64,000 bases of DNA from a phage: NCBI GenBank assembly GCA_026066175.1, contig GCA_026066175.1_4721.2; one strand, written 5' to 3'. Below, piece after piece: positions 2,583-47,518 of this stretch. The number at the start of each line of letters is the position of its first letter. Within the stretch, counting starts at the first letter, position 1. The notes below the pieces were generated by a model that saw nothing but the letters and a program-made list of their open reading frames with translations, made no database searches and was not told the origin of the DNA. The position numbers were made by a program, and so were the translations under genes.

Positions 2583-4193
2583 ATGGACCCAAAACAGATA
2601 GCCATTAAGATTATTACGTTACTGTTTCGTAATGCACAATTGAACCATCCCGATCCCAGTACGATCGAACATGTTAAATCCGTCTTAGATAAAATCGAAC
2701 CCCCGAAAAACCATCTCACCGTTGATGTGGATAGAGAGGTTTTCAACAACCTGATGAACACCATTCATTGGATGTTGGAACAACCGTTATCGGAACCTTT
2801 CGATAAACAACAGTTGCTACAAAGGATACGTTTAGATTGCCTGGAACAAAGCCACGTTTACGAAATTCTCGCCGACGGATTGTACGATATCGAAGACGAT
2901 GCTCATATCAGTAAGGTCTGTTCGCTTTACTACAATGAATTACGTAATCTGATTACCCGTCGTCGTGTATTTGAAACCTTTAAAAACACGTACATGGATA
3001 TCAGTAACGGCCGCCTTGGGGACAAAGAATTTTTCGACGCGATGGCGAATTTGAAACTATCGCTAGATACCATCGAAATGGATACTGAAAACCCCGAAGA
3101 AATGTCCTGTATGATTGACGGCTTCATCGCTGATAGTGAAGACGATATTGAAAAAGTCGAACGTATGTTCGTTAAGGCGATGGAGCGTAACAGTCCTGAA
3201 GGGGGATTTGTCACCGGCTGGCAGGGGTTTAATAAAATGTTGGGGTCGGTCGGCGTATTACGTCGTGGTACTCTAGGATTGATTGGCGCGATGCAACACC
3301 GTAATAAATCAGGGGTGTTATTAAAACTTTTCACCCACCTGGCGTTGTACAATAAACCCCATTTCTTTTTTCCGGAGCGCGCAAAGAAAGCCTTATTGAT
3401 TCATCTCTCAACAGAGAACGAAGTTGAAGAAAACACGCTTCAAATCTACAAGAACATGCGAGAACAGGAAACAGGTGAATATGTCGATATTCGTAAGATT
3501 GACCCACGTGAAGCTTCACGCTATGTACTGAACGTTTTCAATAATGCGGGGTTCTCTGTCTGCATGCGTCGTGTTGATGGAATGAGCTATAAACAACTTG
3601 CTAACCTTATCGACCATTTTGAACGTATGGGTTATGAAGTTATGGCTTTGTTCATCGACTATCTAAAAATGTTCTCGTCAGAAGGATTAGATAGGAATGG
3701 GCCTACGGGCGCTTGGCTGCAAGAACTCTTCAACAAAGTACGTAACCTCTGTAGCGTTAAACGTATTTTAGGTATGACCGTACACCAGTTGTCTTCTGAT
3801 GCGAAGATGCGGGCACGTGATGGTAACGATGAAGAATTTGTTGACCAAGTCGCCGGTTTAAGTTACTGGGATGGATGTAAAGGGATTGACCGTGAGATTG
3901 ACCTTGAGGTAATTGTTGATATCGTTAAGGAACCTGGCAAACGTCAAAGCTGGCAGGTCTTTGCGCTAGGGAAAGACCGTCAACCGGATAACGGCTCAAC
4001 AAAACCTGAAGATAAACATTTTGCGATGCCGTTCCAAACCATCGGGATGCTTCCTGACGATTACGGTAAGAAAGCGGTGTATTGCCGCAAGGTTGGCGGA
4101 CAACCGGTCTCTGAAGGAGGCAAAGGTCCGTGGAACAAGTTTGATGAACATGCCGCACCGAGTAATGAACTACAATTTGATTTAGAATTCTAA
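2583..4193 (+). CDS. putative DnaB-like (SF4, RecA-fold) helicase homolog with deviant Walker A
   Basis: ATG at 2583 with AAAGGA SD (the listed 2499 start is GTG and would overlap the divergent gene). Motif order as in DnaB C-terminal domain: LIGAMQHRNKSG (P-loop-like, Asn in place of the conserved Gly), MALFIDYLKMF (Walker B / H2), TVHQLSSDAKMR (H3-like), GIDREIDLEVIV (H4-like). Confidence 0.6.
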   Translation: MDPKQIAIKIITLLFRNAQLNHPDPSTIEHVKSVLDKIEPPKNHLTVDVDREVFNNLMNTIHWMLEQPLSEPFDKQQLLQRIRLDCLEQSHVYEILADGLYDIEDDAHISKVCSLYYNELRNLITRRRVFETFKNTYMDISNGRLGDKEFFDAMANLKLSLDTIEMDTENPEEMSCMIDGFIADSEDDIEKVERMFVKAMERNSPEGGFVTGWQGFNKMLGSVGVLRRGTLGLIGAMQHRNKSGVLLKLFTHLALYNKPHFFFPERAKKALLIHLSTENEVEENTLQIYKNMREQETGEYVDIRKIDPREASRYVLNVFNNAGFSVCMRRVDGMSYKQLANLIDHFERMGYEVMALFIDYLKMFSSEGLDRNGPTGAWLQELFNKVRNLCSVKRILGMTVHQLSSDAKMRARDGNDEEFVDQVAGLSYWDGCKGIDREIDLEVIVDIVKEPGKRQSWQVFALGKDRQPDNGSTKPEDKHFAMPFQTIGMLPDDYGKKAVYCRKVGGQPVSEGGKGPWNKFDEHAAPSNELQFDLEF

Positions 4194-4218
4194 AACGCAA
4201 AAAAAAAATCGTACGGTT

Positions 4219-4250
4219 CCCTCCTCCAACCCGGAAGGGAAGGAGGAGGG
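4219..4250. terminator. conserved palindromic hairpin CCCTCCTCC-AACCCGGAAGGGAA-GGAGGAGGG between convergent genes
   Basis: 9-bp GC stem, internal AA/AA, CCC/GGG, GGAA loop; an A10 run at 4199-4208 gives a U-tract for the minus-strand transcript. Confidence 0.6.
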
Positions 4251-4267
4251 TTATGACCGTTATGGTG

Positions 4268-4594
4268 TTAACTTATCGTCATGAATTCCGTAGGTGAGAA
4301 TTTCCAACCGTTTTCATTGAGAAGCGTGTTAAGTTTCGCTGCAACGATAAGCCATGCGTGCATGGCTGTCACATCGTATTGGCGATTAACACGGCGTTGG
4401 TTTTCGATATCGATTTGCTCCCGTTCGGTGATGTTTGGGTAGAGCGCGACGGCGCTGGGCTTCCCTAACGCATCACTCATTACCGCCTGACATTCACTGA
4501 TGATGTTATTGAGATGATAATTGTAAACCGTTCCACGCATAACACGATGACGGCATTCAATAATAGCGTCGTAAATAATTTCTCTTGTTGTCAT
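4268..4594 (-). CDS. hypothetical protein (108 aa)
   Basis: ORF in the minus-strand block, start 6 nt after the upstream stop. Confidence 0.55.
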   Translation of the reverse strand: MTTREIIYDAIIECRHRVMRGTVYNYHLNNIISECQAVMSDALGKPSAVALYPNITEREQIDIENQRRVNRQYDVTAMHAWLIVAAKLNTLLNENGWKFSPTEFMTIS

Positions 4595-4600
4595 GATCGA

Positions 4601-5002
4601 TTAAAACACACGTTCGTTTTTAGCACGGGCATCCATAACCAAATCGTAGATACCAGCTGTTCGTAAACATTCTTCGTAATAACGGTGCGTACCTTCCTCC
4701 GCCATCCACGATAACCCACGACTATCGGCAACAATAACCAGTTTGTTATTGTTGAATGCGCATACCACACGGTAAGTCGCATTGTTGTTTGGATCACGTG
4801 TAATCAGTTCGTAAACACCATTAACCGGTTTACTGAATTCACCGTTCAGCGGAATAAGTTCCGTTGTACCTTCAGCAAACGTTACATTGATTGATGCTGG
4901 CTCTTTAGCAATGACGGTGTATTCCACGTTGTGTTCTTTACTGGTCATGATACCGAAATAAGAACTTACTGGAGAACGTGGTACACTAAGAATATTAAAC
5001 AT
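4601..5002 (-). CDS. hypothetical protein (133 aa)
   Basis: ATG start; same operon block. Confidence 0.6.
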   Translation of the reverse strand: MFNILSVPRSPVSSYFGIMTSKEHNVEYTVIAKEPASINVTFAEGTTELIPLNGEFSKPVNGVYELITRDPNNNATYRVVCAFNNNKLVIVADSRGLSWMAEEGTHRYYEECLRTAGIYDLVMDARAKNERVF

Positions 5003-5065: not shown

Positions 5066-5635
5066 TTAGACGATGAGCGTCCAGGTGGTCAGTACACCGC
5101 TTGCGAATTCAAGCTTAAGACGTTTACCAATAAGCTGTTGTTGGATCATCTTTTCCGTGATCCGACGATCGTGTTGAACGGCTTTATCGAATGCCTCTTT
5201 TGCTTCGGCTTGATAAAAGTTCGTTTCTTCGTTCTCGTCGATATCTTCGAATGCATCATCGTCGATATCAGCAAGTTTTACACGGCCGTTTTCATCGGGT
5301 TGTTCGGCCGGTTCGTTGTCGTAAGGCGTGTCTTTTGTCGGTGCGACACGGTGCTGTAGTTCAACCTGGGTTAGCATCACTTCCATCTCACCGTCGATAG
5401 GGATGATGTCATCAGCACTACCGTTTTCGGTTAGCTCTCGACTTTCCAGTAACGTCGTAGTAACAGTGAACACCTCCTCGACAGGAACCTCATCATCGTC
5501 GATGGTGTTAACCGTACCGCTGGTCACTTCGGCAACAACCATCAAATCGAATGCGTGAGGGTCGCCGGGCATTTTGATCCCAGGAAGTTTGTTGAGATAC
5601 CAAGGATCAAGAATCATGATTTCGGGATTAAACAT
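5066..5635 (-). CDS. hypothetical acidic protein (189 aa)
   Basis: ATG start; D/E-rich product. Confidence 0.65.
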   Translation of the reverse strand: MFNPEIMILDPWYLNKLPGIKMPGDPHAFDLMVVAEVTSGTVNTIDDDEVPVEEVFTVTTTLLESRELTENGSADDIIPIDGEMEVMLTQVELQHRVAPTKDTPYDNEPAEQPDENGRVKLADIDDDAFEDIDENEETNFYQAEAKEAFDKAVQHDRRITEKMIQQQLIGKRLKLEFASGVLTTWTLIV

Positions 5636-5710
5636 CGTATTTACCTTTTTATGTTAGGTGGGTTGCGGATGGAAGAATCAATGCATAGTCTGATTTAAGT
5701 TTGTTAAGAC

Positions 5711-6544
5711 TTACTTAGCTTTCGGATTATACGGACTAACATGTTGTTGCATTCGTTGGATTGTTTCGTAGTACGGGTTATAATGAGTGAACATATTGTT
5801 GTATGGATGGTAGCCGTAAAGCGCATTTTGCCTTGCCGGTGAGAAACCTTTTTGAGAAGGACGATTTGAATTTACTGCGAGCACGTAGTAAACCAAATTT
5901 TGATGGTCGAATGTTCCTTCGTTTTTGAAGGTGTCAGCATAGGCGCTTACCGCAGGAGCAAGTCTATCACCATCGGTTGTAATGATCGTACCATCCGGGT
6001 AAACTTCTCGAACGATACACCATGTTCCGATGAGAACATCTTCGGGTGTCTTATTACTGTATCCGACTGTAACGGTAAGGTAAGTATCGAATCCTCCTGA
6101 GCGCTGCGGATGTCGATAAATTGGGCCAGTCGTTTCTGCTTTATCGGTTACGGTTTTTTCGTAAGGACACTTCTTGATTGCTTTGATGTAAATATCGGGA
6201 ATCTCTAATACCGCCTTATCAGGATGAATTCTAAAATGATTCTTGAGTAAGCCCAAAAGGTTGGTTGCTACCACGTCGTGAGGTAGTACCCAATAACTGG
6301 TAGGGGAGTCATCGCCGTCTCTCTTGGAGAAGATGACTGCCTTGTTATCGTCGTCTGGTAGACTGAAGAAAACGATTGACTCAATAGGCATAGCCAGCTC
6401 ACCACAACAGGGGTCAGCGGATAACACCCAATTGTATTTGTTGTCCGTTTCGTATAAATGTTCTGTTCTGTCGATACTACGATCCTTCAATTGGATGTAG
6501 CGTTCACGTTGTTTCTTGGTTAATTTACGGTAGATAGTGGTCAT
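5711..6544 (-). CDS. hypothetical protein, paralog family of 5711/6630/7431 genes (277 aa)
   Basis: N-terminus MTTIYRKL; shares VREVYPDGTIITT and PIYRHP...YLTVT segments with the 6630 gene product. Confidence 0.75.
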   Translation of the reverse strand: MTTIYRKLTKKQRERYIQLKDRSIDRTEHLYETDNKYNWVLSADPCCGELAMPIESIVFFSLPDDDNKAVIFSKRDGDDSPTSYWVLPHDVVATNLLGLLKNHFRIHPDKAVLEIPDIYIKAIKKCPYEKTVTDKAETTGPIYRHPQRSGGFDTYLTVTVGYSNKTPEDVLIGTWCIVREVYPDGTIITTDGDRLAPAVSAYADTFKNEGTFDHQNLVYYVLAVNSNRPSQKGFSPARQNALYGYHPYNNMFTHYNPYYETIQRMQQHVSPYNPKAK

Positions 6545-6588
6545 GTTAAGCTCCTTGATTACGGTAAGGATGATTTCGGTTTTGTGAT

Positions 6589-6617
6589 GATGGTAGGACC
6601 ACTTTGTTTAGGATCCT
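6589..6617 (-). terminator. imperfect hairpin GGTAGGACC...GGATCCTACC between paralog genes
   Basis: 7-9 bp stem in the intergenic gap. Confidence 0.3.
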
Positions 6618-6629
6618 ACCAGTACGGGA

Positions 6630-7403
6630 TTATTCATGATCAGTGTAGAAATGGTGAGGATAGCCGGAGTACGATCCTGCGTTACCGGCTATGGATTCTT
6701 TCTGGGAATCGACGACGAGCGCGTAGAACTGTCGGGAATTTGTTAACGTTGAGAAATAAGAGGAAAGGACTTTTTCGTTCAACGCATCGCACGGTAGACA
6801 GGTACGCCCACAGAACGTCGTAATACGGCCATCCGGATAGATCTCACGGATCATACGCCATTCACCGATATCAACCGGCGATGGCGCTGCTACACCACCT
6901 GTTATCGTTAAATAACGATCATACGTGGTATGACATTCTGGATGTACGTAAATTGGCTTATTGGCCTCAACTTCTTCAGGAGCATAGCGTCGACCGAGAA
7001 GTTCAATAACCTCCAGATAGATTGTAGGCAGATCGCAAAGAACCCCTTCCTCTTTACGTTTCTTCGTGATTCGAGGACGAACCTCATTGATAACGTAGGC
7101 GAGTTCATTCAGCGCTTCTTGCGCTGGTAGCACGAATAAACGGTCCGGTTTGTCGGACAAGTCTTCATTTACGTAAACGTAACAAACATCGTCTTTAGGC
7201 GCGTAGAAGAAGCGAGAGACCTTAAAGGTTTCCGTAGTACGATAACCGAGACGCGTTTGGTCCTGCACCAGAGAAAATATCCAGCGACGTCCTTCGTCCT
7301 GTTCAATGATATCATTGAACATCTTTGTTTGATCAGGAAGTTGATATTCTTCCTGTAATTTAGCAAGTGCTTCATTATCCAGTTTGGTGTAAACATCAGT
7401 CAT
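6630..7403 (-). CDS. hypothetical protein, paralog of 5711 gene product (257 aa)
   Basis: N-terminus MTDVYTKL; IREIYPDGRITT and PIYVHPECHTTYDRYLTITGG align to the paralog; Cys cluster CGRTCLPC. Confidence 0.75.
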   Translation of the reverse strand: MTDVYTKLDNEALAKLQEEYQLPDQTKMFNDIIEQDEGRRWIFSLVQDQTRLGYRTTETFKVSRFFYAPKDDVCYVYVNEDLSDKPDRLFVLPAQEALNELAYVINEVRPRITKKRKEEGVLCDLPTIYLEVIELLGRRYAPEEVEANKPIYVHPECHTTYDRYLTITGGVAAPSPVDIGEWRMIREIYPDGRITTFCGRTCLPCDALNEKVLSSYFSTLTNSRQFYALVVDSQKESIAGNAGSYSGYPHHFYTDHE

Positions 7404-7430
7404 GATAGTATCCTCGATTAGTAAGGTTGG

Positions 7431-7835
7431 CTAGTCTATCTTAAGCCAGATTGATGGTAAATGGAAATAGACACCGTCGTCTATTTGTTTTTGTGTTAAC
7501 GGGGTTGGAAGTTTAGTGATGATGTTGTCGATCGATTCCTCAATGTCACTTGTTAGAACGTCGATGTGGTAATAGCGAGCGATGCGTCCGTTACGTTCTA
7601 GCCAAAACAGACGAACGAAATCACTATTTTTATTAATCGCATTCATAAACACGATTTGATGAAGCAGGATCATTCTTGACGAGGGGTAATCGTCAGGACG
7701 CGGAGTCATCACCAGTTCCCAACGTTTCCGTCGCACGCCTTTTTTGAATTGACTCGTTACATTTGAACCACTTTTACCTAAGTTTATAACAAATTGCTTT
7801 AGACGATACGGTGTGTTTCTGTAAATATCGGTCAT
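7431..7835 (-). CDS. hypothetical protein, short member of the same family (134 aa)
   Basis: N-terminus MTDIYRNT; first gene after the TATATTAC repeat. Confidence 0.65.
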   Translation of the reverse strand: MTDIYRNTPYRLKQFVINLGKSGSNVTSQFKKGVRRKRWELVMTPRPDDYPSSRMILLHQIVFMNAINKNSDFVRLFWLERNGRIARYYHIDVLTSDIEESIDNIITKLPTPLTQKQIDDGVYFHLPSIWLKID

Positions 7836-38617: not shown

Positions 38618-40117
38618 ATGAGCGAACAAGAACAAAAACTCAAGAAGAAACTGCTCGGTATTCAATGTCGACACATCAGTTATAACGAAGCCAACGATGG
38701 CAGCAAGAACGATCTCATGATTGCAAAAGAGATCATGTTCTTCGATGACAACACACAAGCCACCAACCTGCGGTTCTTTGAAAACCACAAACGTCCGTTT
38801 TGGGTTACAGTTGAAAGCAAACGTAAGAACAAATATAAAAAGGAAAGCGAGAAGCTCTCAAACGTACGTCGTTATGAGGTACGCCAAAGCGAACTGGTTG
38901 AGAAAATCAGTTCGGTGCTTTATAAACGACGTGCTGACGATAACACCCGTTTACAACAGCTTGCGCGGAGTCCTTACCTCTATGGAACGGACGTTAGCGC
39001 CAGCTGCTATTTAAAAACCCAGTACAATACAAAATGGCCGGAATACGTTGATAAACTGCCTGCTTCTATCGCATGTTTCGATATCGAAACCGACGTTGTC
39101 CACGGGCACGGTAAGATCGTTTGTATGTCTATTACAATGGGCTACAACGCGATTCTTTGTTACACCCAGGACTTCGTTGGTCATATTCCGAATGCGATTG
39201 AGAAAACCCGTGAGAAGATTCGTTATTACCTGGCCGACCGTTTAAACACCAAAGAGGATCCTCACGCCTTTGAAAAATACCATTACGATATTCGCATTGT
39301 AGAAAGCCCTGCGCAAGCGGTGATTCAATGCATGCAGAAGGTGCACGAATGGCAGCCGGATTATCTCCTTGGCTGGAACATCGCGTTCGATATTCCGCGT
39401 ATGCTCCAGGCATTGCAGGACGAAGGTTATCGTCCCGAGGATGTTTTCTCCGATCCTCGCGTACCACCGAAATACCGTTTAGCACGCTGGGTACCACCTA
39501 AAACCGATAAGGTATCGGCATCAGGCCGTAAAACCAACCTTACCCTTGAGCAAACCTGGCCAATGTTTTATACGATGGCCACGTATCAGGTTATGGATGC
39601 GATGTGTGGTTATAAGTTCGTTCGTTTAGGAAGACCGGATGAAGGACGCTACTCACTCGATGCGGTGTTAGAGCGAAATAAATGCCATACGAAATTAAAA
39701 GCGATCCCAGGTACCGAAGGGTTCACGGAGCTCGCCTGGCACGAAGAGATGCAAACGAACCATCAAATCGACTACGGTGTATATAACCTTTGGGATAACC
39801 AAGGCATCGAGGCGTTGGACCAGAAAACAAAAGACTATTCGATGACCATCCCTATCCGTTTAGCAGCGTCGGATTTGAAAGATTTCAGTTCCAACCCTAA
39901 ACGTATCTGTGATAAACTTTTCTTCGTTTATCTCAACCGTGGGGAAGTCATGGGATGTACTGCTGATGACATGACGCAAGAGGAGGATAAATGGGTGATT
40001 TCACGTGCAGGGCATATCGTGACCTTGCCGTGCGATCTCATGGCGGATAACGGCATCCATCTCTTCTGGGATATGCCAAATCTAAGAAGCTATATTCGAT
40101 TATTTGTTGCGGATTAA
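38618..40117 (+). CDS. family-B DNA polymerase N-terminal/3-prime-5-prime exonuclease domain protein (499 aa)
   Basis: DEDDy motifs in PolB-like order and spacing: Exo I ACFDIETD (residues about 152-158), Exo II LLGWNIAFDIPRML (about 251-264), Exo III YSLDAV (about 345-350). No polymerase motifs A/B/C. Confidence 0.75.
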   Translation: MSEQEQKLKKKLLGIQCRHISYNEANDGSKNDLMIAKEIMFFDDNTQATNLRFFENHKRPFWVTVESKRKNKYKKESEKLSNVRRYEVRQSELVEKISSVLYKRRADDNTRLQQLARSPYLYGTDVSASCYLKTQYNTKWPEYVDKLPASIACFDIETDVVHGHGKIVCMSITMGYNAILCYTQDFVGHIPNAIEKTREKIRYYLADRLNTKEDPHAFEKYHYDIRIVESPAQAVIQCMQKVHEWQPDYLLGWNIAFDIPRMLQALQDEGYRPEDVFSDPRVPPKYRLARWVPPKTDKVSASGRKTNLTLEQTWPMFYTMATYQVMDAMCGYKFVRLGRPDEGRYSLDAVLERNKCHTKLKAIPGTEGFTELAWHEEMQTNHQIDYGVYNLWDNQGIEALDQKTKDYSMTIPIRLAASDLKDFSSNPKRICDKLFFVYLNRGEVMGCTADDMTQEEDKWVISRAGHIVTLPCDLMADNGIHLFWDMPNLRSYIRLFVAD

Positions 40118-40210
40118 CCTTCGTTCTGTAAAAGTTTACCGATGTATGGAAATTTCTGTGAGATACCAAAGGTACTCGATAAGTTTAGGAATTTCTGGAC
40201 GGAGGTAATT

Positions 40211-41347
40211 ATGTTGGAACATCTTGAGTGTTTGGACAATGAATACTTAAATTTCACCAATCGTCGTTATCGTATCTTCGAGGACGGTACCCTCTACGAT
40301 TATAAAGAGAATCGCAAAGTACCCGTCATCATCGAAGACAACAACTCTTACGTTATCATTGACTGGTATCGTGGAGTGGGTAAATACGAGCTGGGAATGA
40401 TCATACTTACGGCATTTGATCGAATCCATATCCCTAACTATCTCTACGACGAAATCGAATCTTTGTTTATTGACAACGATCCGACGAATTTCTCGTATAG
40501 TAACCACATCTATCGTTTCCGTAACGGTCCGTTAGCGGTGGAAGGGTATCCGGGGTACTACTACATCCCGTTTGCCACGTACTATGCGTTAAATGAACAA
40601 GGTGAATGTTTAAGTCTCTTGTCGGGGGAAGGTATAACGTGGACAATGACGCCACAGAACGGCACACGACGTCCAGGCTATCGATACAGAAAAGTAACAC
40701 CCGATAGTGGGTTCACAGCCCAACTGTATCGTCATCGTGCGTTGATGTTAACGTTCCGTCGTTATGATGCGAGCGTTGTAGAAATGACCGTTAATCACAA
40801 GAACGGGATTAAAGGCGATGATTGGCTGGATAACCTTGAATGGGCAACCTACAAGGAAAACAACAATCATGCGCGTATCAACGGCTTATGCGACGGTAAA
40901 GCAAAACCCGTTAAGATCTTTGATTACGTTCGTCACACCGAGCGTCAATTCAAAAGCATCGCTGAAGCAGAACGCGCTTATCCACACGTTGCAAAAGGAC
41001 GTTTCAAATGGTGGGTTGAGAATCCGCCGAAACGCATTCCAGAATGCAACCTGTACATTAAACATGCGTTCGATAACACCCCATGGCCAGAATGGAAACT
41101 GGGTGACGATCGTCGTATTGAGGATGTATCAGGTATTCCTATCATTGCACTGAACATGGTAACCGGCGAGAAACGAGTGTATCCGTCGGTTACTGCTGCA
41201 GGTAAAGATACGAAAACAAGTTGGATAACCGTAAGACGTCATTGCGATAGGCGTGTTGTTCCTGCGAAACAAGCCTGGTGCTTCCGTTATGTTGATGATG
41301 TCAAGAATATGCCGGAGTTAACCTCCCCACCAACAATCGAACAGTAA
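40211..41347 (+). mobile_element. HNH homing endonuclease ORF (379 aa from ATG 40211)
   Basis: GGAGGT SD 7 nt upstream; HNH core LYRHRALMLTF...VNHKNGIKGDDWLDNLEWATYKENNNHA (nt about 40763-40886). Confidence 0.8.
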
Positions 41348-41349
41348 CG

Positions 41350-41830
41350 ATAACAGGTCCCCCTACTTGTAATGAGTGGGTGAACTCTCTTTAATTGCTG
41401 GAAACCTTTAATGCCCCTCCACACCACAACGCAATCCGAAAGGGTAAACGTGACGGTTGTCGAAAGACAGAAAGAAGTTGGAGGGGATCACCTAAGCTGA
41501 AATAAAAGCCGTTACTTTCTGGATATGGGAAGAGTCTAACGGTGCTAAGGGTTCTGCTAGAAATAAGGTAACCGTAGCAGCGAAGACCCTACGGACTGTC
41601 GTGACCAACTCACTGAGTTGGCGTGGTGAAACACGGACAGACTACGGGTAACGTTCAACGACCATCCGGTTGCGCGGAGTAGGAGAAATAGGATGTTCTC
41701 TGAAAAGGGAGAAGTCGGTCGAGGTGTTGTAGAAACACCGTTGCTTTGCTTCGCAAACATAAGACAGGCTAAGATATGGTCTATATTAAATGTAATACTA
41801 TGATGTATAGAATTTAATGGCTCGATATTA
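41350..41830 (+). ncRNA. candidate group I intron catalytic core (or degenerate remnant)
   Basis: About 500 nt without ORF; R-like GTTCAACGACCATCC (41653-41667) and S-like AAGATATGGTCTA (41771-41783) can form P7 (GACCA/TGGTC) with a compensatory change relative to the canonical GACTA/TAGTC; Q/P-like GCAATCCGAAAGGG at 41431-41444; several local hairpins. Confidence 0.4.
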
Positions 41831-41859
41831 GCAGTTCATATCCAAATGGGCAGATCCTT

Positions 41860-42075
41860 TTGAATCTATCCAGAGCGTGCGTATTTCGTGAGCTTTCACG
41901 GATTGAGGGCGTCTCTGATTATCAATTCAGGAAGCTGGGTATTAACTTCATCACGGGCGGTAAAACGAATGCGGTTGACTTCTGCCGAATCGTTCATAAA
42001 GCCCCGTCGATGTTCGAACTGTTAGCGCATTTTGACGCGACACGTCCGAAGGAAGCGCCAAAGACCCTTGATTGA
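41860..42075 (+). CDS. small ORF (71 aa, TTG start); possibly the 3-prime exon of the upstream gene rather than an independent gene
   Basis: Open frame begins at 41818 right after the intron-like core; followed by an A11 run and a bidirectional terminator. Confidence 0.25.
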   Translation: MNLSRACVFRELSRIEGVSDYQFRKLGINFITGGKTNAVDFCRIVHKAPSMFELLAHFDATRPKEAPKTLD

Positions 42076-42100
42076 AAAAAAAAAAGAAACGCATGCGAAG

Positions 42101-42131
42101 CCCCTCCCCTGGCGGAAGCCGGAGGGAGGGG
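42101..42131. terminator. hairpin CCCCTCCCCTGGC-GGAA-GCCGGAGGGAGGGG with flanking A11/T-rich tracts
   Basis: Variant of the conserved hairpin; A-run 42076-42086 gives a U-tract for the minus-strand cluster, TTTTATGCG on the plus side. Confidence 0.6.
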
Positions 42132-42148
42132 TGGAGGTTTTATGCGTT

Positions 42149-42634
42149 TTATGCGCGTTCGCTGCTAACCATGACTTTATAATCAGCGTCGGTTAAGAAG
42201 ATAGACAGGAAGCCATGTTCTTTGCAAAGCTCACTAAGGACCTCGGTAATGATTTCATTGATCAATGGTTTATTTGCGAGAGCGTAGATATACCCATCAG
42301 TAAAAGAAAGGGCATGTTTAATCATCGGCTCATGAGACGCCAGGACAAGGATCACATGGTGTTGACCATCATCGGTAACGACCGCTTGCGTCGACACAAA
42401 GAAACCAGTGAAGCCGCATTGGTAACTGGCTTTAGGGATATATAAATCACCTAAAGCTTCGTCACGCGCTTTCATGTGGGTTTCAGGCGTGATGCTACTA
42501 AGCTGATCTTCGGCGATATCCAGAGTCTCTTCAACGGTTTTCAGAATGGCTTCTTTGAAATCCTTGCGGTAGACCTGGATAATTTCACGGTCGTTGATGT
42601 AATCGCCGGATTCGATGGTAAAGTTCAAGTTCAT
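42149..42634 (-). CDS. small hypothetical protein, tandem array member (161 aa)
   Basis: GGAG SD followed by an A-run before ATG; C-terminal EHGFLSIFLTDADYKV strand similar to the family motif. Confidence 0.7.
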   Translation of the reverse strand: MNLNFTIESGDYINDREIIQVYRKDFKEAILKTVEETLDIAEDQLSSITPETHMKARDEALGDLYIPKASYQCGFTGFFVSTQAVVTDDGQHHVILVLASHEPMIKHALSFTDGYIYALANKPLINEIITEVLSELCKEHGFLSIFLTDADYKVMVSSERA

Positions 42635-42687
42635 TTTTTTTTACTCCTGATTTATGTGTCGATTGATTGACGTATTAATTTATGTTT

Positions 42688-42706
42688 GAAGGTGCTGTTC
42701 ACCTTC
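42688..42706 (-). terminator. hairpin GAAGGTG-CTGTT-CACCTTC
   Basis: Directly after the stop of the 42708 gene; near-identical 24-mer also at 18872-18895. Confidence 0.4.
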
Positions 42707-42707
42707 G

Positions 42708-43139
42708 TTAGATATCATCCGGTGTATATTCGATGTTGTAAACGACGTAACGGTCTGACGCATGAACGACGAGCTCGACGGGGAAATCATAATGCTTGGT
42801 TTTGTCTCGAACATGCTGGGTAAAGAGATCCGTATAACGGATTAAGTCTTCCACGGTATACTCAGAAGGGAAGAAGACATCGATGGTTATTGACTTTTCA
42901 TAGAGGCGTATGACCAGCTTATCCAGAAGGTTGGCATATCGGTTACACGGGGCGACGTCCAGAAGACAGAAATCACCGTCTTCTGCGTCTCGTGGTATCC
43001 ACATCGTGGTATCTTGTAACGACGTTTCAAGGATCTCGAAAATGCAGTCTGCTGTAAGTCTTAGTTTATCTGTTATTTCACGGTTAGGTGAATAATGGTC
43101 ACGAATGCTTTTCACTGCTTCTTTGATGGAGAAAGTCAT
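42708..43139 (-). CDS. small hypothetical protein, tandem array member (143 aa)
   Basis: MTFSIK N-terminus, ILETSLQDTTMW, KSITIDVFFP, HYDFPVELVVH. Confidence 0.75.
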   Translation of the reverse strand: MTFSIKEAVKSIRDHYSPNREITDKLRLTADCIFEILETSLQDTTMWIPRDAEDGDFCLLDVAPCNRYANLLDKLVIRLYEKSITIDVFFPSEYTVEDLIRYTDLFTQHVRDKTKHYDFPVELVVHASDRYVVYNIEYTPDDI

Positions 43140-43153
43140 CGTTGATGCTCCTT

Positions 43154-43663
43154 TTAAAAGATATCAAGCCATGAGGATGGGGAAACCAGTTCGCTTGTGA
43201 AACATTGCGTACCGTCGGTATTTACCGCATGGGTAAGTTTATAAGCCTTAACGGCCGGTTTACTGCCGATGGTGAGGACGGTTGTCATGTCGAGCCATTC
43301 GGCACGATGGAGAAATGCCATATCAGCCACCTTCTGTAGACCATTTGCTTCAAAATCGATACGGTCGTTAAGCGGCATCAATCGGATTTCAATACGTTCT
43401 TTGAAGAGTTGAAACGTTACTGAAAACTCATGCGGTTTGGCATTAAGACATAAAGGCCCTCGATGGAAGTGTTGGTATGCTTCATTCTTGTTATGCTCGA
43501 AAACCCAGCAGTTGTGGACAAGAGAAGCGTCTTGTAACGAGGATTCCAGGTAGTCAAATACCTTGTTTATTGTTTGCTCGAGCAGAGACGCTAATGAATC
43601 TGGATATCCAGCAAATGCTGCTTCGGCGATCGATTTTACTGAAATGGTATTGTTCTGGTTCAT
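43154..43663 (-). CDS. small hypothetical protein, tandem array member (about 169 aa)
   Basis: Listed start 43690 is TTG; ATG at 43663 has an AAGGAA SD; YLESSLQDASLVHNCW matches the family. Confidence 0.7.
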   Translation of the reverse strand: MNQNNTISVKSIAEAAFAGYPDSLASLLEQTINKVFDYLESSLQDASLVHNCWVFEHNKNEAYQHFHRGPLCLNAKPHEFSVTFQLFKERIEIRLMPLNDRIDFEANGLQKVADMAFLHRAEWLDMTTVLTIGSKPAVKAYKLTHAVNTDGTQCFTSELVSPSSWLDIF

Positions 43664-43667
43664 CTCT

Positions 43668-44120
43668 TTATTCCTTGTCGGATTCGTCAATGTATTTGGT
43701 GTCGTAAGACATATGCTGGATTAATTTTCTAGGCTCGATGAAAATACGACACGAGATAAATACATCGGGATCATACTGCTCTACACAACGCCCGAAAACC
43801 AGCTTTGCAGTCTGGCGCATCAAGGCTATTTCCCGATCATTCATCTCATTATCGAATTCGATGTTTATCGTGATTTTATCAGGAAATAAATAGATAGAGT
43901 AATTGCCACTAATACCACCATCATCAAAACGATAATCGTTGTGGTAATGGTGAAGCTTACCGTCGTGTGTCGTCTGGTACCATCCGATGATACTATCAAG
44001 TCCCACACCCAAGCGGCGTTCGAATGCCCAATTAATAACATCCTCGACAACGGATGCGGGCGTGGGACCATTGAATAATCTATCCAGACGCTTTTTCATC
44101 GATTTGGTTTTCACGTTCAT
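43668..44120 (-). CDS. small hypothetical protein, tandem array member (150 aa)
   Basis: ATG start; C-terminal QYDPDVFISCRIF. Confidence 0.7.
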   Translation of the reverse strand: MNVKTKSMKKRLDRLFNGPTPASVVEDVINWAFERRLGVGLDSIIGWYQTTHDGKLHHYHNDYRFDDGGISGNYSIYLFPDKITINIEFDNEMNDREIALMRQTAKLVFGRCVEQYDPDVFISCRIFIEPRKLIQHMSYDTKYIDESDKE

Positions 44121-44150
44121 TGTTTCTTTTCCTGTTATAGTCGGTATACA

Positions 44151-44184
44151 GCCCTTCCCCGGCCTTGATGGCTAGGGAAGGGGC
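44151..44184 (-). terminator. imperfect GC hairpin GCCCTTCCCCGGCC-TTGAT-GGCTAGGGAAGGGGC
   Basis: Intergenic within the array. Confidence 0.4.
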
Positions 44185-44196
44185 TATGTTACGTTG

Positions 44197-44598
44197 TTAC
44201 GCTTCGCAATCAGCTGAAGATGTTGCACGCTTCTTGCCATCAAAATGCCAAAGTAGACACGCTGGGAAGAGGCAAACATCTAGAGTGCAAGGGATGTCGT
44301 ATTTTTCTTCCAGTTCGTAAAGACAATCCGCGAGCTGCTTTCGTGCATTCTCATCGTGTCGTAATGCGATATGACCTAATCGTTGTTGGTCGTTCTTTAC
44401 ATATACCTCGAAAAGTATGTGTTGTTGAAAAGCATTGATTCGTACCCCTTCAAGTATATCGGTGTCGAGCATGCGAGTAAAACTCATTGCTGTCGACGAT
44501 GTCGAGGTTTCTTGTTTAACCAGATCGATCATGGTGGGAATATACGAATGGTCGATGTTATCGACGACCGCTTTAGCGACGGAATCTGCAATGTTCAT
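44197..44598 (-). CDS. small hypothetical protein, tandem array member (133 aa)
   Basis: C-terminal KYDIPCTLDVCLF. Confidence 0.7.
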   Translation of the reverse strand: MNIADSVAKAVVDNIDHSYIPTMIDLVKQETSTSSTAMSFTRMLDTDILEGVRINAFQQHILFEVYVKNDQQRLGHIALRHDENARKQLADCLYELEEKYDIPCTLDVCLFPACLLWHFDGKKRATSSADCEA

Positions 44599-44628
44599 CT
44601 TTAATCCTTAATGTTATCGTTACCGTAT

Positions 44629-45048
44629 TTAGGTGGTTTTCGGGTTATGTTCGTATTTGACGATCGTTACTGGAATATTGCAACGGTCGAAACAGTTGAA
44701 TGAAATTGTTGTTGGGATATCGAACGCCACGACTCTGGCTTTAATATACCCGATTAAGTCGTCTTCGATAAATAAAACCTCAGGCTTATCGTTAGCATCG
44801 ACCCAAACACCAACACAGAGCTTGTCGTTATTGGTCAGTACGTTGATAGTGTATGTACTGTCGTCCATGTGAATATGCGATCTTCTACAAGAATTGAGTA
44901 GAGCAGTCGGACTATTCGCAGTCGCCCGCAACTGGTTGCTGGTCTGGATCGTGTTCAGGACATCACGTATGATGTTATCTACCAACGTAAATAGTTTCTC
45001 AGTAACGTTCTCTTTTAGAAGCTGCATCAAAGAAACAGTTGTGGTCAT
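44629..45048 (-). CDS. small hypothetical protein, tandem array member (139 aa)
   Basis: C-terminal AFDIPTTISF. Confidence 0.7.
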   Translation of the reverse strand: MTTTVSLMQLLKENVTEKLFTLVDNIIRDVLNTIQTSNQLRATANSPTALLNSCRRSHIHMDDSTYTINVLTNNDKLCVGVWVDANDKPEVLFIEDDLIGYIKARVVAFDIPTTISFNCFDRCNIPVTIVKYEHNPKTT

Positions 45049-45809
45049 TTACGATCCTCTTTAACAACAGATGTTACCCACGACGTGATGGCTGGATGAA
45101 AACAGAGGGTGAAGGTGACGGATGTTTTGTATCTCGATGCGCAGTTTCGCAGTCGTGTTTCGAAGATTCTTTTCGATTCAAGATCGTTGTTGTCGATAAC
45201 AGACAAACCGCTTACTATCCCAATAACGTTGATGCCTTTGTCTGTCTGAGTTGTGACGATGCGCCGTAACGGTTCATACTCGTAGCTGTATACGCACCCA
45301 TTCTTAGGACCGGGTGTCGAACTGGCTGCACGGGCGACGGCAACTAACATATCGACAATACGATCGATTCGAGTCCTTGCGTTGTCACTGCCGGTCTCGG
45401 TTGAGATTTCTTTCGTATCGAATATTATTACTCCGCTATCGTTAGATCCCGTGGGGAAACACATAGCTAAACGAATAGGATATTCGTACATTGAGGTTCT
45501 TTTTTGGAAAATTTCAGATAGATGTTGTTCATACGTCAACACATCAACATCATCTAGAGATGGGGGTAATACAGCCTGAATAATAACGCCGTCATCGGTT
45601 AAACCGATTCCCAGGAGACGTAGTTTATTGTCGCTTGGTACTGTTTTCTGGAGATATGCTTTACCGTTAACGATATCGGTATCCCACGTATCTTCACATA
45701 ACAAATTTTCAAACCGATCGAAAATATGGTCTACGGTATCGATGAGTTCTGTGACACGTCGTTGTTGGTTGGTTTCAATCAATTGTTGGATTCTTTCTTT
45801 GATAGACAT
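45045..45809 (-). CDS. hypothetical protein, tandem array member (254 aa)
   Basis: ATGA overlap with the downstream gene; MYEYPIRLAMCF. Confidence 0.75.
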   Translation of the reverse strand: MSIKERIQQLIETNQQRRVTELIDTVDHIFDRFENLLCEDTWDTDIVNGKAYLQKTVPSDNKLRLLGIGLTDDGVIIQAVLPPSLDDVDVLTYEQHLSEIFQKRTSMYEYPIRLAMCFPTGSNDSGVIIFDTKEISTETGSDNARTRIDRIVDMLVAVARAASSTPGPKNGCVYSYEYEPLRRIVTTQTDKGINVIGIVSGLSVIDNNDLESKRIFETRLRNCASRYKTSVTFTLCFHPAITSWVTSVVKEDRK

Positions 45810-45811
45810 GA

Positions 45812-46264
45812 TTACTCCTTAGTTCCTTCTTTGTCGGCTTTATACTCCACACAGTGGAATTCACATTCATCGATAAACCTGAGTGTTACTGTAATAGGGA
45901 AATCGCGCGGCGAAGCGGATTCCTTAAATGCGCTATCAGCAACATCAGATAACCGACGTATGGTATTTCCTCCTTTCGCCACGAACGGGAATTTAATGTT
46001 AATAAGGATACGGTGTTTGTAAATAGTAAAGACGACAGTGCTGTCGAAATGCACACCAGTTAAAGTCATTGTTGGGATGCGTTTTACGACGGAGAAATAT
46101 GTCCCGTCAATATCGCTACTTCCCACTGACCATTCATCGGAATTGCGCAGACTTCCCTTGAGGAGTTCAACGCTTTGCGTGACCACCTCAGCAACCTGTG
46201 CGACGTAGGTGTCTTTGTGCGTATCGAACAGTTCATTTACGCTGGATTTGAATGAAAAAGCCAT
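45812..46264 (-). CDS. small hypothetical protein, tandem array member (150 aa)
   Basis: MAFSFK N-terminus, ILINIKFPF, PRDFPITVTLRF. Confidence 0.75.
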   Translation of the reverse strand: MAFSFKSSVNELFDTHKDTYVAQVAEVVTQSVELLKGSLRNSDEWSVGSSDIDGTYFSVVKRIPTMTLTGVHFDSTVVFTIYKHRILINIKFPFVAKGGNTIRRLSDVADSAFKESASPRDFPITVTLRFIDECEFHCVEYKADKEGTKE

Positions 46265-46308
46265 TGCCGTGATCCTACCTTTTCTTTATCTGTGATAAAA
46301 TTGTTTAT

Positions 46309-46330
46309 GTGTTCCCTCTTACGGGAACAC
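46309..46330 (-). terminator. hairpin GTGTTCCC-TCTTAC-GGGAACAC
   Basis: Perfect 8-bp stem after the stop of the 46338 gene. Confidence 0.4.
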
Positions 46331-46337
46331 GTCATTT

Positions 46338-46847
46338 TTAACTATCGGTTTTGCTGTCCTCTGGATCGTAGCGGAATTCGAATAGTTCCGATCCGTCGTG
46401 TCCTGCTATTGTCAACATAATCGGCATGTCGAATCCTCGAGCGCGCGAATGGAGACATTGCGCTAATTTTATTTTCGCATACGCTGCTATTTCGTTGGTT
46501 GCTATACGAGACTCGCCTGAGATGCTGAGTATGATATCAATACTAACAAGGTCGTCGTGTAGCGCAAAACGCCAGCGATCGATACGGGGATTATCGGCAG
46601 CAAGCGATTCGTTTACAAGATAGACTTTTTCATCGAACGACACGGCAGGACTCCAGCATTGTTCGTTCAACAGACATGTCTGAAGTCTTGAAATCGTCAG
46701 ATCGATGATGTCCCAGCACGCAACCAGCGTCATATCGGATACGAGATTGAGAAGTTCGTGTACACGATCTTTTATTTTTAATGCCTCTCCTTGCGGACGT
46801 CCGCAAATACCGTGTGCGTCAACTTTCTTATTAACTTCGTTACTCAT
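46338..46847 (-). CDS. small hypothetical protein, tandem array member (about 169 aa)
   Basis: ATG at 46847 preferred over GTG at 46853; C-terminal GFDMPIMLTIAGHD. Confidence 0.7.
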   Translation of the reverse strand: MSNEVNKKVDAHGICGRPQGEALKIKDRVHELLNLVSDMTLVACWDIIDLTISRLQTCLLNEQCWSPAVSFDEKVYLVNESLAADNPRIDRWRFALHDDLVSIDIILSISGESRIATNEIAAYAKIKLAQCLHSRARGFDMPIMLTIAGHDGSELFEFRYDPEDSKTDS

Positions 46848-46912
46848 AATCACCTCTTTTTAATCTAAATGTTCGTTGGGATTGTTTACCATTTGGCGTC
46901 AGCTTAAAACGA

Positions 46913-47518
46913 TCACATGCTTCCCAGCACGTTCATAAGCATAGAACCCATACGGGAGCTCAAATTCGACGCGCCGGTGTATTCAGCCAGTTGGCGATAG
47001 ACCTCTTCTGGGCTGTCTTCTTCGCCGTCAGCGTTGATATAGACCGAAAAAGAGAGCAGGTCAGTATCCACGTTGACCAACAAACGTCGTTCATTACGAT
47101 CCTTCAGGTTTTCGGTAATCGCAGCTTTCAACAGATCCAATGCGTTAATTGCGCGCAGGATATCTGTATCCGGGCTCTCTAGGGTGATTTTACCTTTCAG
47201 ATCGATGTTGACTTTGGTGACTACCGGACTGAGATCGACTTTAACGTGTTTGTCGGGATTCATGCGAATAACCGCGCGGTCGATATCCGAACCGAAGAAC
47301 GCGATGGTTGGGCCCAACGCTTCGTTGTTCGGATCCATGTTTTCATCCATTCCCGCCTGCAAGAAACGTTCTACGTTATCCAATTCACGATAAACGGACT
47401 CTTCGATTTCCTTCAGGTAGTTTGCTGCGGTTTCATGTTCTTTACGTAGCTCGTCTTTAAGGAGCTGTACGGTGGTTTCACTGGAACGAATGCTGTTAGC
47501 GAATTGGGTGATAGACAT
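46913..47518 (-). CDS. hypothetical protein in array (201 aa)
   Basis: ATG start; family membership uncertain. Confidence 0.7.
   Translation of the reverse strand: MSITQFANSIRSSETTVQLLKDELRKEHETAANYLKEIEESVYRELDNVERFLQAGMDENMDPNNEALGPTIAFFGSDIDRAVIRMNPDKHVKVDLSPVVTKVNIDLKGKITLESPDTDILRAINALDLLKAAITENLKDRNERRLLVNVDTDLLSFSVYINADGEEDSPEEVYRQLAEYTGASNLSSRMGSMLMNVLGSM

Follow-up and report, generated by a model that had tools for sequence, protein, structure and literature searches.

How does a phage make a complete DNA polymerase subunit if the annotated gene stops just before a catalytic motif, and what is the seemingly empty DNA behind the endonuclease gene that follows it? This question is raised by a locus in the 64-kb stretch of phage DNA analyzed here (the window), in which an open reading frame (ORF) at 38618-40117 is followed by a second ORF starting at 40142 or 40211 and ending at 41347, an ORF-free stretch, and an open frame at 41818-42075. 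With Escherichia phage Goslar the region shares 88% identity; in the RefSeq and GenBank records of this nucleus-forming jumbo phage, gp068 appears as a 499-aa "DNA polymerase" and gp069 as a "NUMOD1 domain protein", followed by a featureless gap of 820 nt. We are confident that positions 40115-41820 of the plus strand, which carries all features described below unless stated otherwise, constitute a mobile group I intron of the IA type, 1706 nt long, in the gene for the N-terminal/exonuclease subunit of a family-B DNA polymerase. Its first three bases, UAA, are the stop codon that ends the annotated gene. The element would belong to a known and indeed classic class, i.e., phage group I introns that encode an HNH homing endonuclease and reside in a conserved motif of a DNA-metabolism gene. 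We found no account of an intron in the Goslar polymerase gene in the literature that we searched, though coverage was incomplete, and the Goslar genome paper is silent on introns and homing.

Two distant reading frames form one polymerase gene

Exon 1 (38618-40114) comprises 499 codons ending in RLFVAD and encodes the homologue of Goslar gp068, while exon 2 (41821-42075) contributes 84 codons and a stop, beginning with LDISSSYPNGQ and containing the polymerase motif A. Both belong to PHROG 3011 "DNA polymerase" (576 positions), of which positions 4-494 match residues 7-499 of exon 1 (E=2.5e-149) and positions 495-571 match exon 2 (E=2.9e-18), with the two matches being contiguous at 494/495. 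By tblastn, homologues of the exon 2 frame form the C-terminus of polymerases that are encoded by one uninterrupted coding sequence in 237 other jumbo-phage records, and only in Goslar is the frame unannotated in this comparison. No start codon or Shine-Dalgarno (SD) sequence is present at the junction in exon 2, whose first in-frame start is TTG at 41860.

The junction FVAD-LDISSSYPNGQ aligns with ADLDIxSxYPN of three intronless proteins. A further intronless protein, P0001, has 583 aa, is 96% identical and uninterrupted, and is encoded on a 237,273-bp ENA contig (L021) from a metagenomic Goslar-like genome. When this intronless allele is compared by blastn, the alignment breaks at 40113/40114 in the window and at 5515/5516 in Goslar. 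A single pair of sites both restores the polymerase sequence and satisfies the rules of a U before the 5' splice site and a G before the 3' splice site, namely U40114 and G41820, the latter being the omega-G directly preceding CUCGAU (AAGAG before CUCGAU in Goslar). Two shifted registers were rejected: GA joined to G gives Glu and lacks the U, while GU joined to G removes the AD residues. Removal of the intron leaves an uninterrupted ORF of 583 aa, and continuity of the PHROG profile, the intronless allele, and the splice-site rules together fix the predicted junction to the nucleotide. The insertion lies between the codons for Asp499 and Leu500, two codons before the catalytic Asp of motif A. 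A preliminary description of this locus, made from the letters alone, had considered splice sites and exon identity to be beyond the eye; comparison with relatives now places the former after U40114 and at G41820 and identifies the host gene as that of the exonuclease subunit of a family-B DNA polymerase. The ligated exons are predicted to read GTTGCGGAT-CTCGATATT (also written as GTTGCGGAT followed by CTCGATAT), and the spliced polymerase should yield the tryptic peptide LFVADLDISSSYPNGQILLNLSR. Goslar itself (L001, NC_048170) has the same junction, with an intron of 1762 nt at 5517-7278 and exon 2 at 7279-7533, both of them unannotated.

The assignment to family B comes from structure and profile comparisons. 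In an AlphaFold2 (AF2) model of P0001, confidence is high for residues 10-450, and Foldseek ranks the family-B polymerases of RB69 and T4 as the best structural matches (E=5e-13 for RB69 gp43). The C-terminal 120 residues are of low confidence, with a predicted local distance difference test (pLDDT) value below 50 for residues 499-515, and the model does not resolve motif A. Searches of the PDB with the single sequence or a profile of 4 sequences gave nothing useful; a 48-sequence profile matched RB69 gp43 (E=1.8e-5) in three collinear stretches. The third of these aligns aDlDisstYPn with SFD411LTSLYPS of RB69, in which the second Asp is matched to D411, and scores 2.1 bits alone. D499, D501, Y506, and P507 are invariant in the 48 homologues, and these residues together with the collinear stretch weakly suggest that motif A maps here. 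Motifs B and C were not identified in the 583-aa protein, and the rest of the polymerase is therefore presumably a separate polypeptide.

A group I ribozyme core fills the ORF-free stretch

The preliminary description had pointed to two strings resembling the R and S elements of group I introns, GTTCAACGACCATCC at 41653-41667 and AAGATATGGTCTA at 41771-41783. Both are indeed present, in one exact copy each in the 64 kb, though with 2-3 mismatches they occur 5 and 3 times compared to 2.1 and 1.3 expected, and such short strings alone are thus within chance. Unlike them, the match to a covariance model (CM) exceeds chance: Searched with Rfam in E-value mode, Intron_gpI (RF00028) aligned to 41278-41801 on the plus strand with 43.2 bits (E=3.8e-9 for a 2.3-kb region and E=1.1e-7 for the whole window) and was the sole Rfam match below E=0.1 in the window. 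The alignment assigns the R-like string to J6/7 and the 5' strand of P7 and the S-like string to J8/7 and the 3' strand of P7.

A manual model of P2-P9, based on the CM alignment and on folds of the domains, was checked helix by helix for complementarity, and its pairing was tested on three Goslar-like sequences, i.e., the window, Goslar, and contig L007. The ribozyme part occupies 41346-41820, i.e., the 3' portion of the intron. It opens with the P2 hairpin (41362-41367/41375-41380, CCUACU/AGUGGG), in whose place relatives have a hairpin of other sequence, followed by P3 (41385-41392 CUCUCUUU with 41704-41711 AAAGGGAG), which emerged from the CM alignment, the helix check, and the three-phage test. 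P4 (41396-41401/41572-41579) is supported by CM, fold, and helix check, and P5 (41404-41408/41565-41569) bears an extension of ca. 140 nt with two GAAA-capped hairpins. One of these is the supposed Q/P element GCAATCCGAAAGGG at 41431-41444: the string exists as had been noted, but it belongs to the P5 extension, and P4 lies elsewhere. P6 (41586-41589/41646-41649) carries the branches P6a-c between its strands, including the CCAAC/GUUGG hairpin at 41605-41621 that had already been picked out by eye. J6/7 and the 5' strand of P7 span 41653-41664 (GACCA at 41660-41664), followed by P7.1 (41665-41668/41675-41678, UCCG/CGGA), P7.2 (41682-41687/41696-41701, GGAGAA/UUCUCU), and, beyond the 3' strand of P3, P8 as a branched stem (41713-41770, AGUC.GUC/GAC.GGCU) with two inner hairpins. 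J8/7 and the 3' strand of P7 (41771-41781, UGGUC at 41777-41781) lead into P9 (UAUA 41782-41785/UAUA 41806-41809) and the 3' tail, which ends with the omega-G at 41820.

The fold thus displays the conserved group I core, with the P3-P8 and P4-P6 domains, the P3/P7 pseudoknot, and J6/7 and J8/7 of consensus sequence; P3, P7, J6/7, J8/7, and the omega-G are intact in all three phages. Of the cells of the 124 modelled pairs, 97.5% pair across these phages compared to 40-47% after shifting the partners by 1-3 columns. Changes on both sides occur in five pairs, a level reached by 1 of 500 shuffles. Four of these double-sided compensatory pairs fall into one helix of the P5 extension (41508-41514/41537-41543), which exists as CCGUUA/UAACGG, CCACCG/CGGUGG, and CCACUG/CAGUGG, and one-sided G-U changes keep pairing in the P6 region. 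The P7 pairing GACCA/UGGUC, proposed before as a compensated form of GACUA/UAGUC, turned out to be exactly that: the C-G form is shared by the window, Goslar, L007, and L012, while the introns of phiKZ, PhiPA3, EL, and HPP-Temi have the canonical U-A form. The same variants turned up at other loci when viral contigs were scanned for exact matches, and all new loci but one also match Intron_gpI, most of them above the gathering score. P7.1 and P7.2 together are a hallmark of subgroup IA in the Michel-Westhof classification, and by their presence between P7 and the 3' strand of P3 the intron is of the IA type. The guanosine-dependent self-splicing and catalysis of 40115-41820 that we infer from this core are predictions from sequence comparison.

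Two peripheral observations stand beside this model. The poorly conserved 3' tail (41786-41820, 47-66% identity) lacks 13 nt relative to Goslar and L007, while the omega-G and the first codons of exon 2 are kept. The invariant segment 40126-40140, which the model leaves unused, contains a perfect 7-bp complement (GUUUACC/GGUAAAC) to 41443-41449 in the P5-extension hairpin, where the exchange C40140U in Goslar keeps a G-U pair; its 8-bp alternative with 41379-41386 overlaps P2 and P3.

The intron ORF and signs of mobility

Directly upstream of the core lies the endonuclease ORF whose proximity the preliminary description had pointed out, and both are parts of the same 1706-nt intron. The ORF (40211-41347, 378 aa) starts with AUG at 40211, 5 nt downstream of GGAGG, and a second in-frame AUG is present at 40142. 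Its product matches the Pfam families HNH_3 (25.8 bits, cut-off 24.8) and NUMOD1 (31.6 bits, cut-off 22.8) as well as HNH families of PHROG. The best PDB match is the homing endonuclease I-HmuI (1U3E, E=0.01), aligned over the beta-strands and VDHKDGNK...NLRW, and the HNH core VNHKNG...DNLEW...NNNH is preserved. At the protein level, the ORF shares 70% identity with Goslar gp069, 34% with the HNH protein of HPP-Temi (91% coverage), 27% with phiKZ gp179, and 29% with PhiPA3 gp210, and the homology to phiKZ/PhiPA3/EL-type proteins is significant at this identity of 27-29% (E 1e-15 to 1e-18). It is intact in the three intron-plus phages (378, 396, and 396 aa). By analogy, the product would be an active endonuclease with specificity for the intronless polymerase gene, and a candidate cleavage target is found in L021 around 4496/4497 (TTCGTTGCAGAC followed by CTTGACATTAGC). 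We propose that, during co-infection with relatives, this I-HmuI-like HNH/NUMOD1 enzyme would nick or cut their intronless polymerase alleles, and that repair from the intron-plus genome would copy the intron along with short exon flanks.

Several comparisons bear on this proposal. Over the gene, identity between Goslar and the intronless L021 amounts to 95.5%, with 92-100% (mostly 97-100%) in distant windows compared to 82%, 67%, and 72% in three overlapping 60-nt windows at the insertion site. The diverged flank covers ca. 60-80 nt, and its differences are synonymous, e.g., GCA GAC CTT GAC versus GCG GAT CTC GAT. Conversely, the window phage is only ca. 89% identical to Goslar overall, yet their exon flanks are identical from -27 to 0. 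Close relatives thus differ by presence or absence of the intron and show flanks of the co-converted type, a pattern as expected of homing with co-conversion, although the direction of gain or loss could be either.

The motif is also a recurrent target. About one fifth of the best homologues (ca. 24 of 120) end at or near it: ca. 12 directly after AD as in the window, 4 after ADLD (as does HPP-Temi), 3 a few codons further on, and 5 upstream between W and I. Intron_gpI matched downstream at all five such loci that were inspected, with 27-79 bits, and related introns occupy at least three to four sites within motif A. Among these five loci, one contains two tandem group I introns in the same polymerase gene (L026, 4874-7000, at the W/I and AD sites) and another has its HNH gene on the strand opposite to the intron (L025, 5000-6600). 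A further contig (L011) has three Intron_gpI matches within 1.2 kb (3458-4679).

The ORF might, of course, belong to an intron that splices but is no longer mobile here, with an HNH protein that has become inactive, retargeted, or domesticated and with presence and absence of the intron resulting from precise loss or ordinary recombination. The leader and ORF block (40141-41345) would fit this view in being only ca. 65% identical to Goslar (70% in amino acids) with sharp identity boundaries at 40140/40141 and 41345/41346, and L021 carries six synonymous differences in the 15 nt on each side of the insertion site, possibly enough to prevent recognition. We nevertheless consider loss of mobility unlikely in light of the intact ORF in three phages, its preserved HNH core, the identical flanks of window and Goslar, the related introns at several sites of the motif, and the activity of a homologous enzyme, PhiPA3 gp210 (PMC11620839). 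Compared to ca. 65% for the ORF block, nucleotide identity between window and Goslar is 93% in the ribozyme and ca. 89% in the exons. These differences and the sharp boundaries suggest partly separate histories of ORF and ribozyme, and the ORF may have been exchanged on its own.

If the intron is mobile as we think, a more speculative extension would be that the endonuclease serves as a weapon of interference competition among co-infecting Goslar-like chimalliviruses, aimed at the active-site motif of the polymerase just as PhiPA3 gp210 acts against phiKZ. The synonymous cluster in the intronless relative could then be target-site escape, the staggered insertions in motif A could be traces of an arms race, and folding of the ribozyme in the ribosome-free phage nucleus and translation of the endonuclease in the cytoplasm might represent mutually exclusive states of the RNA. 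We put this forward tentatively, as an idea by analogy that may well be wrong.

A distant guide sequence probably places the ORF in the loop of P1

Where the 5' splice site is recognized decides the architecture of the intron. Its 5' segment (40115-40140) is invariant in the three Goslar-like phages save position 40140, and by homology we assign the 5' strand of P1 to the exon bases GGAU (40111-40114) and its 3' strand, the guide, to GUCC at 41357-41360, so that U40114 forms the U.G wobble with G41357. GUCC just 5' of P2 is invariant in seven introns (window, Goslar, HPP-Temi, phiKZ, PhiPA3, EL, and L012), which share a common plan of an exon ending in GAU, a short leader, the HNH ORF, GUCC, a variable P2 hairpin, P3, and AAUUGCYGG at P4. 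In several of these relatives, the first intron bases pair with those just 5' of GUCC through differing sequences, e.g., UGU/ACA in PhiPA3, AGUGAUG/CAUCACU in EL, and AGUUAUA/UAUAACU in L012. HPP-Temi extends its P1 by UAAA/UUUA to 8 continuous base pairs (GGAU-UAAA with UUUAGUCC). For the window, alignments and a helix search yielded a proposed P1a of UCGUU (40121-40125) with AACGA (41346-41350), similar to these extensions.

Three further introns are informative. ORF-less L024 combines GGAU/GUCC with an 8-bp P1a (GACAUUCU/AGAAUGUC) into a simple hairpin; L022, which has the same insertion site as the window, pairs exon GGUGAU with guide GUCACC and thus shows a two-sided change compared to GCGGAU/GUCCCC of the window; and L023 has an extended P1 of ca. 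15 bp that encloses its ORFs. From these comparisons we conclude that the guide is most consistently GUCC and that the HNH ORF would sit in the loop of P1. Two proximal pairings, 7-bp UUGCGGA/UCUGUAA and CGGAUU/AAUCCG (with 41433-41438), were rejected on comparison with the relatives.

The alternative is an architecture in which the guide is the proximal GUUC at 40123-40126, leaving a P1 loop of 8 nt, and the ORF is housed in a P2 loop closed by AGUUUACC (40133-40140) and GGUGAACU (41379-41386). Both helices are present in the sequence, and invariance of the 5' segment apart from position 40140 would be in line with such a role. However, phiKZ, HPP-Temi, and L012 have no proximal guide, L024 and the covariation in L022 put the guide at GUCC directly 5' of P2, and the 8-bp closing helix overlaps both P2 and P3, which makes this arrangement quite improbable to us.

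With the guide at GUCC, splicing might proceed as follows. In the primary transcript, exon GGAU would pair with the guide to form P1, from which the 1.2-kb HNH gene loops out, and this P1 geometry is what comparison with relatives suggests. The core P3-P9 (41385-41810) would then bind guanosine, which attacks after U40114, and docking of the omega-G G41820 would allow the exons to be ligated as GCGGAU-CUCGAU to encode the 583-aa protein.

The same 5' segment has another possible pairing partner. In the local minimum-free-energy (MFE) fold, 40118-40126 CCUUCGUUC pairs with 40198-40206 GGACGGAGG, which would occlude the GGAGG SD sequence of the HNH ORF, with a z-score of only -1.6. Over the SD of the respective ORF, hairpins that differ from phage to phage can be seen by eye in Goslar, phiKZ, EL, and HPP-Temi. 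SD occlusion and formation of P1a may compete, since both use 40121-40125.

How firmly does the intron reading stand?

A number of observations weigh against a functional, mobile intron as described above. At gathering thresholds, Rfam reports no match in the 64 kb, and the Intron_gpI search that the preliminary description had proposed as a check is therefore positive in E-value mode but negative at the curated gathering score for RF00028 membership, with 43.2 compared to 50 bits. The P1/P2 that Rfam places at 41278-41370, within the 3' end of the ORF, are an artefact given that the true 5' exon is 1.2 kb upstream. The three close phages do not vary in the core helices, and covariation comes from peripheral helices only, while the structure model was itself derived from the window sequence. 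Furthermore, P1 has only 4 bp plus a G-U before a C-C mismatch, P10 could comprise at most 2 bp (C41821-G41356 and U41822-A41355) and is not claimed, the 3' tail has the 13-nt indel relative to Goslar, and the diverged flank of L021 could reflect intron loss or unrelated recombination instead of homing. For the Rfam shortfall, a plausible explanation is that the large peripheral insertions and a P1 5' strand 1.24 kb away lower the score and force the model to invent P1/P2 within the 3' end of the ORF.

Some of these points would equally suit a relic that has lost splicing, in which case either the subunit would end at Asp499 and function lacking motif A, or exon 2 would be expressed on its own. 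The score below threshold, the short P1, the shortened 3' tail, and the low AF2 confidence for the C-terminal 120 residues are all compatible with such decay. Yet the invariance of D499, D501, Y506, and P507 in 48 homologues argues that motif A is required, conservation is 93% in the ribozyme next to ca. 65% in the ORF block, the elements P3, P7, J6/7, J8/7, and omega-G are intact in three phages, and the 3' tail is within the range of 10-23 nt seen among relatives. A dead intron thus appears very improbable. That there is no functional intron at all but a chance likeness amid three separate genes as in the Goslar annotation (a 499-aa polymerase fragment and a free-standing HNH gene followed by a non-coding gap) is hardly credible because, despite the empty Rfam result at gathering threshold and the RefSeq/GenBank layout of gp068, gp069, and 820 unannotated nucleotides, it would have to explain away the Intron_gpI match at E=1.1e-7, the homology of exon 2 to the C-terminus of single-CDS (coding sequence) polymerases in 237 phages, PHROG continuity at 494/495, an uninterrupted allele of 96% identity, the missing start codon and SD at the junction with TTG 41860 as first in-frame start, and a fold supported by covariation.

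Consequences for work with Goslar

If our reading is right, Goslar gp068 is annotated 84 residues too short, with the catalytic Asp of motif A in the missing part, and gp069 is no free-standing gene. Replisome knock-down, tagging, proteomics, and structural work in Goslar, a widely used model of nucleus-forming E. coli phages, should then use the spliced product of 583 aa. The natural pair of intron-plus and intron-minus alleles in a tractable coliphage could serve to test endonucleases as competition weapons beyond the single case of PhiPA3 and phiKZ, and the locus could show how group I splicing and expression of an intron ORF work when transcription and translation are separated by compartments. 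More generally, motif A of this polymerase family is an intron hot spot, and members whose peripheral insertions are large and whose P1 strand is distal escape detection at curated Rfam thresholds.

Neighboring genes and related loci

Between exon 2 and a convergent minus-strand ORF ending at 42149, the interval 42076-42140 contains an A-run, a G+C-rich hairpin (CCCCTCCC...GGGAGGGG, ca. 42100-42130), and a T-run. It resembles a bidirectional terminator and is conserved in Goslar, though a simple terminator scan did not list it. Further on, ca. ten small ORFs (130-250 aa) on the minus strand at 42149-47518 match the hypothetical Goslar genes gp070-gp076; as to paralogy among them, blastp revealed marginal similarity only (E ~2e-4 to 4e-4).

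Similar arrangements are visible in RNA polymerase genes. In phiKZ (L019, NC_004629; ~2397 to ~3840-4026), gp180 ends with LGAD at GCGGAU directly followed by UAA, and a group I intron of 92 bits carrying gp179 comes next; by eye, an unannotated exon of ca. 62 codons (FDGDTVSF...) completes an NADFDGD-like motif of the RNA polymerase beta-prime subunit before the start of gp178. In L012 (3540-5300; IMG/VR 3300042270_000151) and L008, an RNA polymerase beta-prime-like gene is split after GADYDGD by an HNH ORF and a group I core of 61.6 bits, and the first 26 bases and the R/P7/P7.1 region of this intron closely resemble those of the window. Related introns thus appear to colonize different genes after GAU codons.

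Comparison with known systems

The closest characterized relative is the intron of PhiPA3 gp210, a group I intron with an HNH endonuclease in a chimallivirus RNA polymerase gene whose enzyme is active (Birkholz et al. 2024, PMC11620839), while the closest case in the same gene is the uncharacterized split polymerase of HPP-Temi. Global pairwise identities of the ribozyme cores (0.63-0.75) do not tell the nearest relative. PhiPA3 gp210, phiKZ gp179, and EL gp185 share with the window that they come from nucleus-forming jumbo phages with homologous HNH proteins and the same layout, from an exon ending in GAU through ORF, GUCC, P2, and P3 to the AAUUGCYGG core, inserted beside codons for catalytic Asp residues. 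They differ in that their host gene encodes RNA polymerase instead of a DNA polymerase motif A, P7 is C-G compensated in the window, and its P5, P6, and P8 extensions are much larger (a 476-nt ribozyme part compared to ca. 250-330 nt) with a sub-threshold Rfam score; moreover, the window intron is known from sequence alone. HPP-Temi (PP968062; CDS0345, HNH CDS0346, and CDS0348) has the same host gene, a related HNH protein, and an Intron_gpI match of 59 bits, but the insertion is 6 nt further downstream (ADLD-IVSTYPN compared to AD-LDISSSYPN) and the record shows two polymerase fragments with no intron annotated.

Phage group I introns that interrupt a DNA polymerase gene and code for nicking homing endonucleases of the HNH type are also those of SPO1 and SP82 (I-HmuI/I-HmuII) and Bastille (I-BasI). 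Their polymerases belong to family A, and their hosts are Gram-positive. At 378 compared to 174 aa, the ORF of the window is twice as long, having NUMOD1 and an N-terminal region in addition, and its similarity to these enzymes is marginal (E=0.01). Similar ribozymes with highly divergent ORFs have been described for SPO1-type introns, judging from titles cited in PMC11620839, and the same contrast of a 93% identical ribozyme with a ca. 65% identical ORF block separates the window from Goslar. The td, nrdB, and sunY introns of T4 (IA2) resemble the window intron in their IA-type core with P7.1 and P7.2, the in-frame UAA right after the 5' splice site, and an ORF looped out of a peripheral element. 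These T4 ORFs encode GIY-YIG or HNH enzymes and are located in P6a or P9.1, whereas that of the window would be located in L1.

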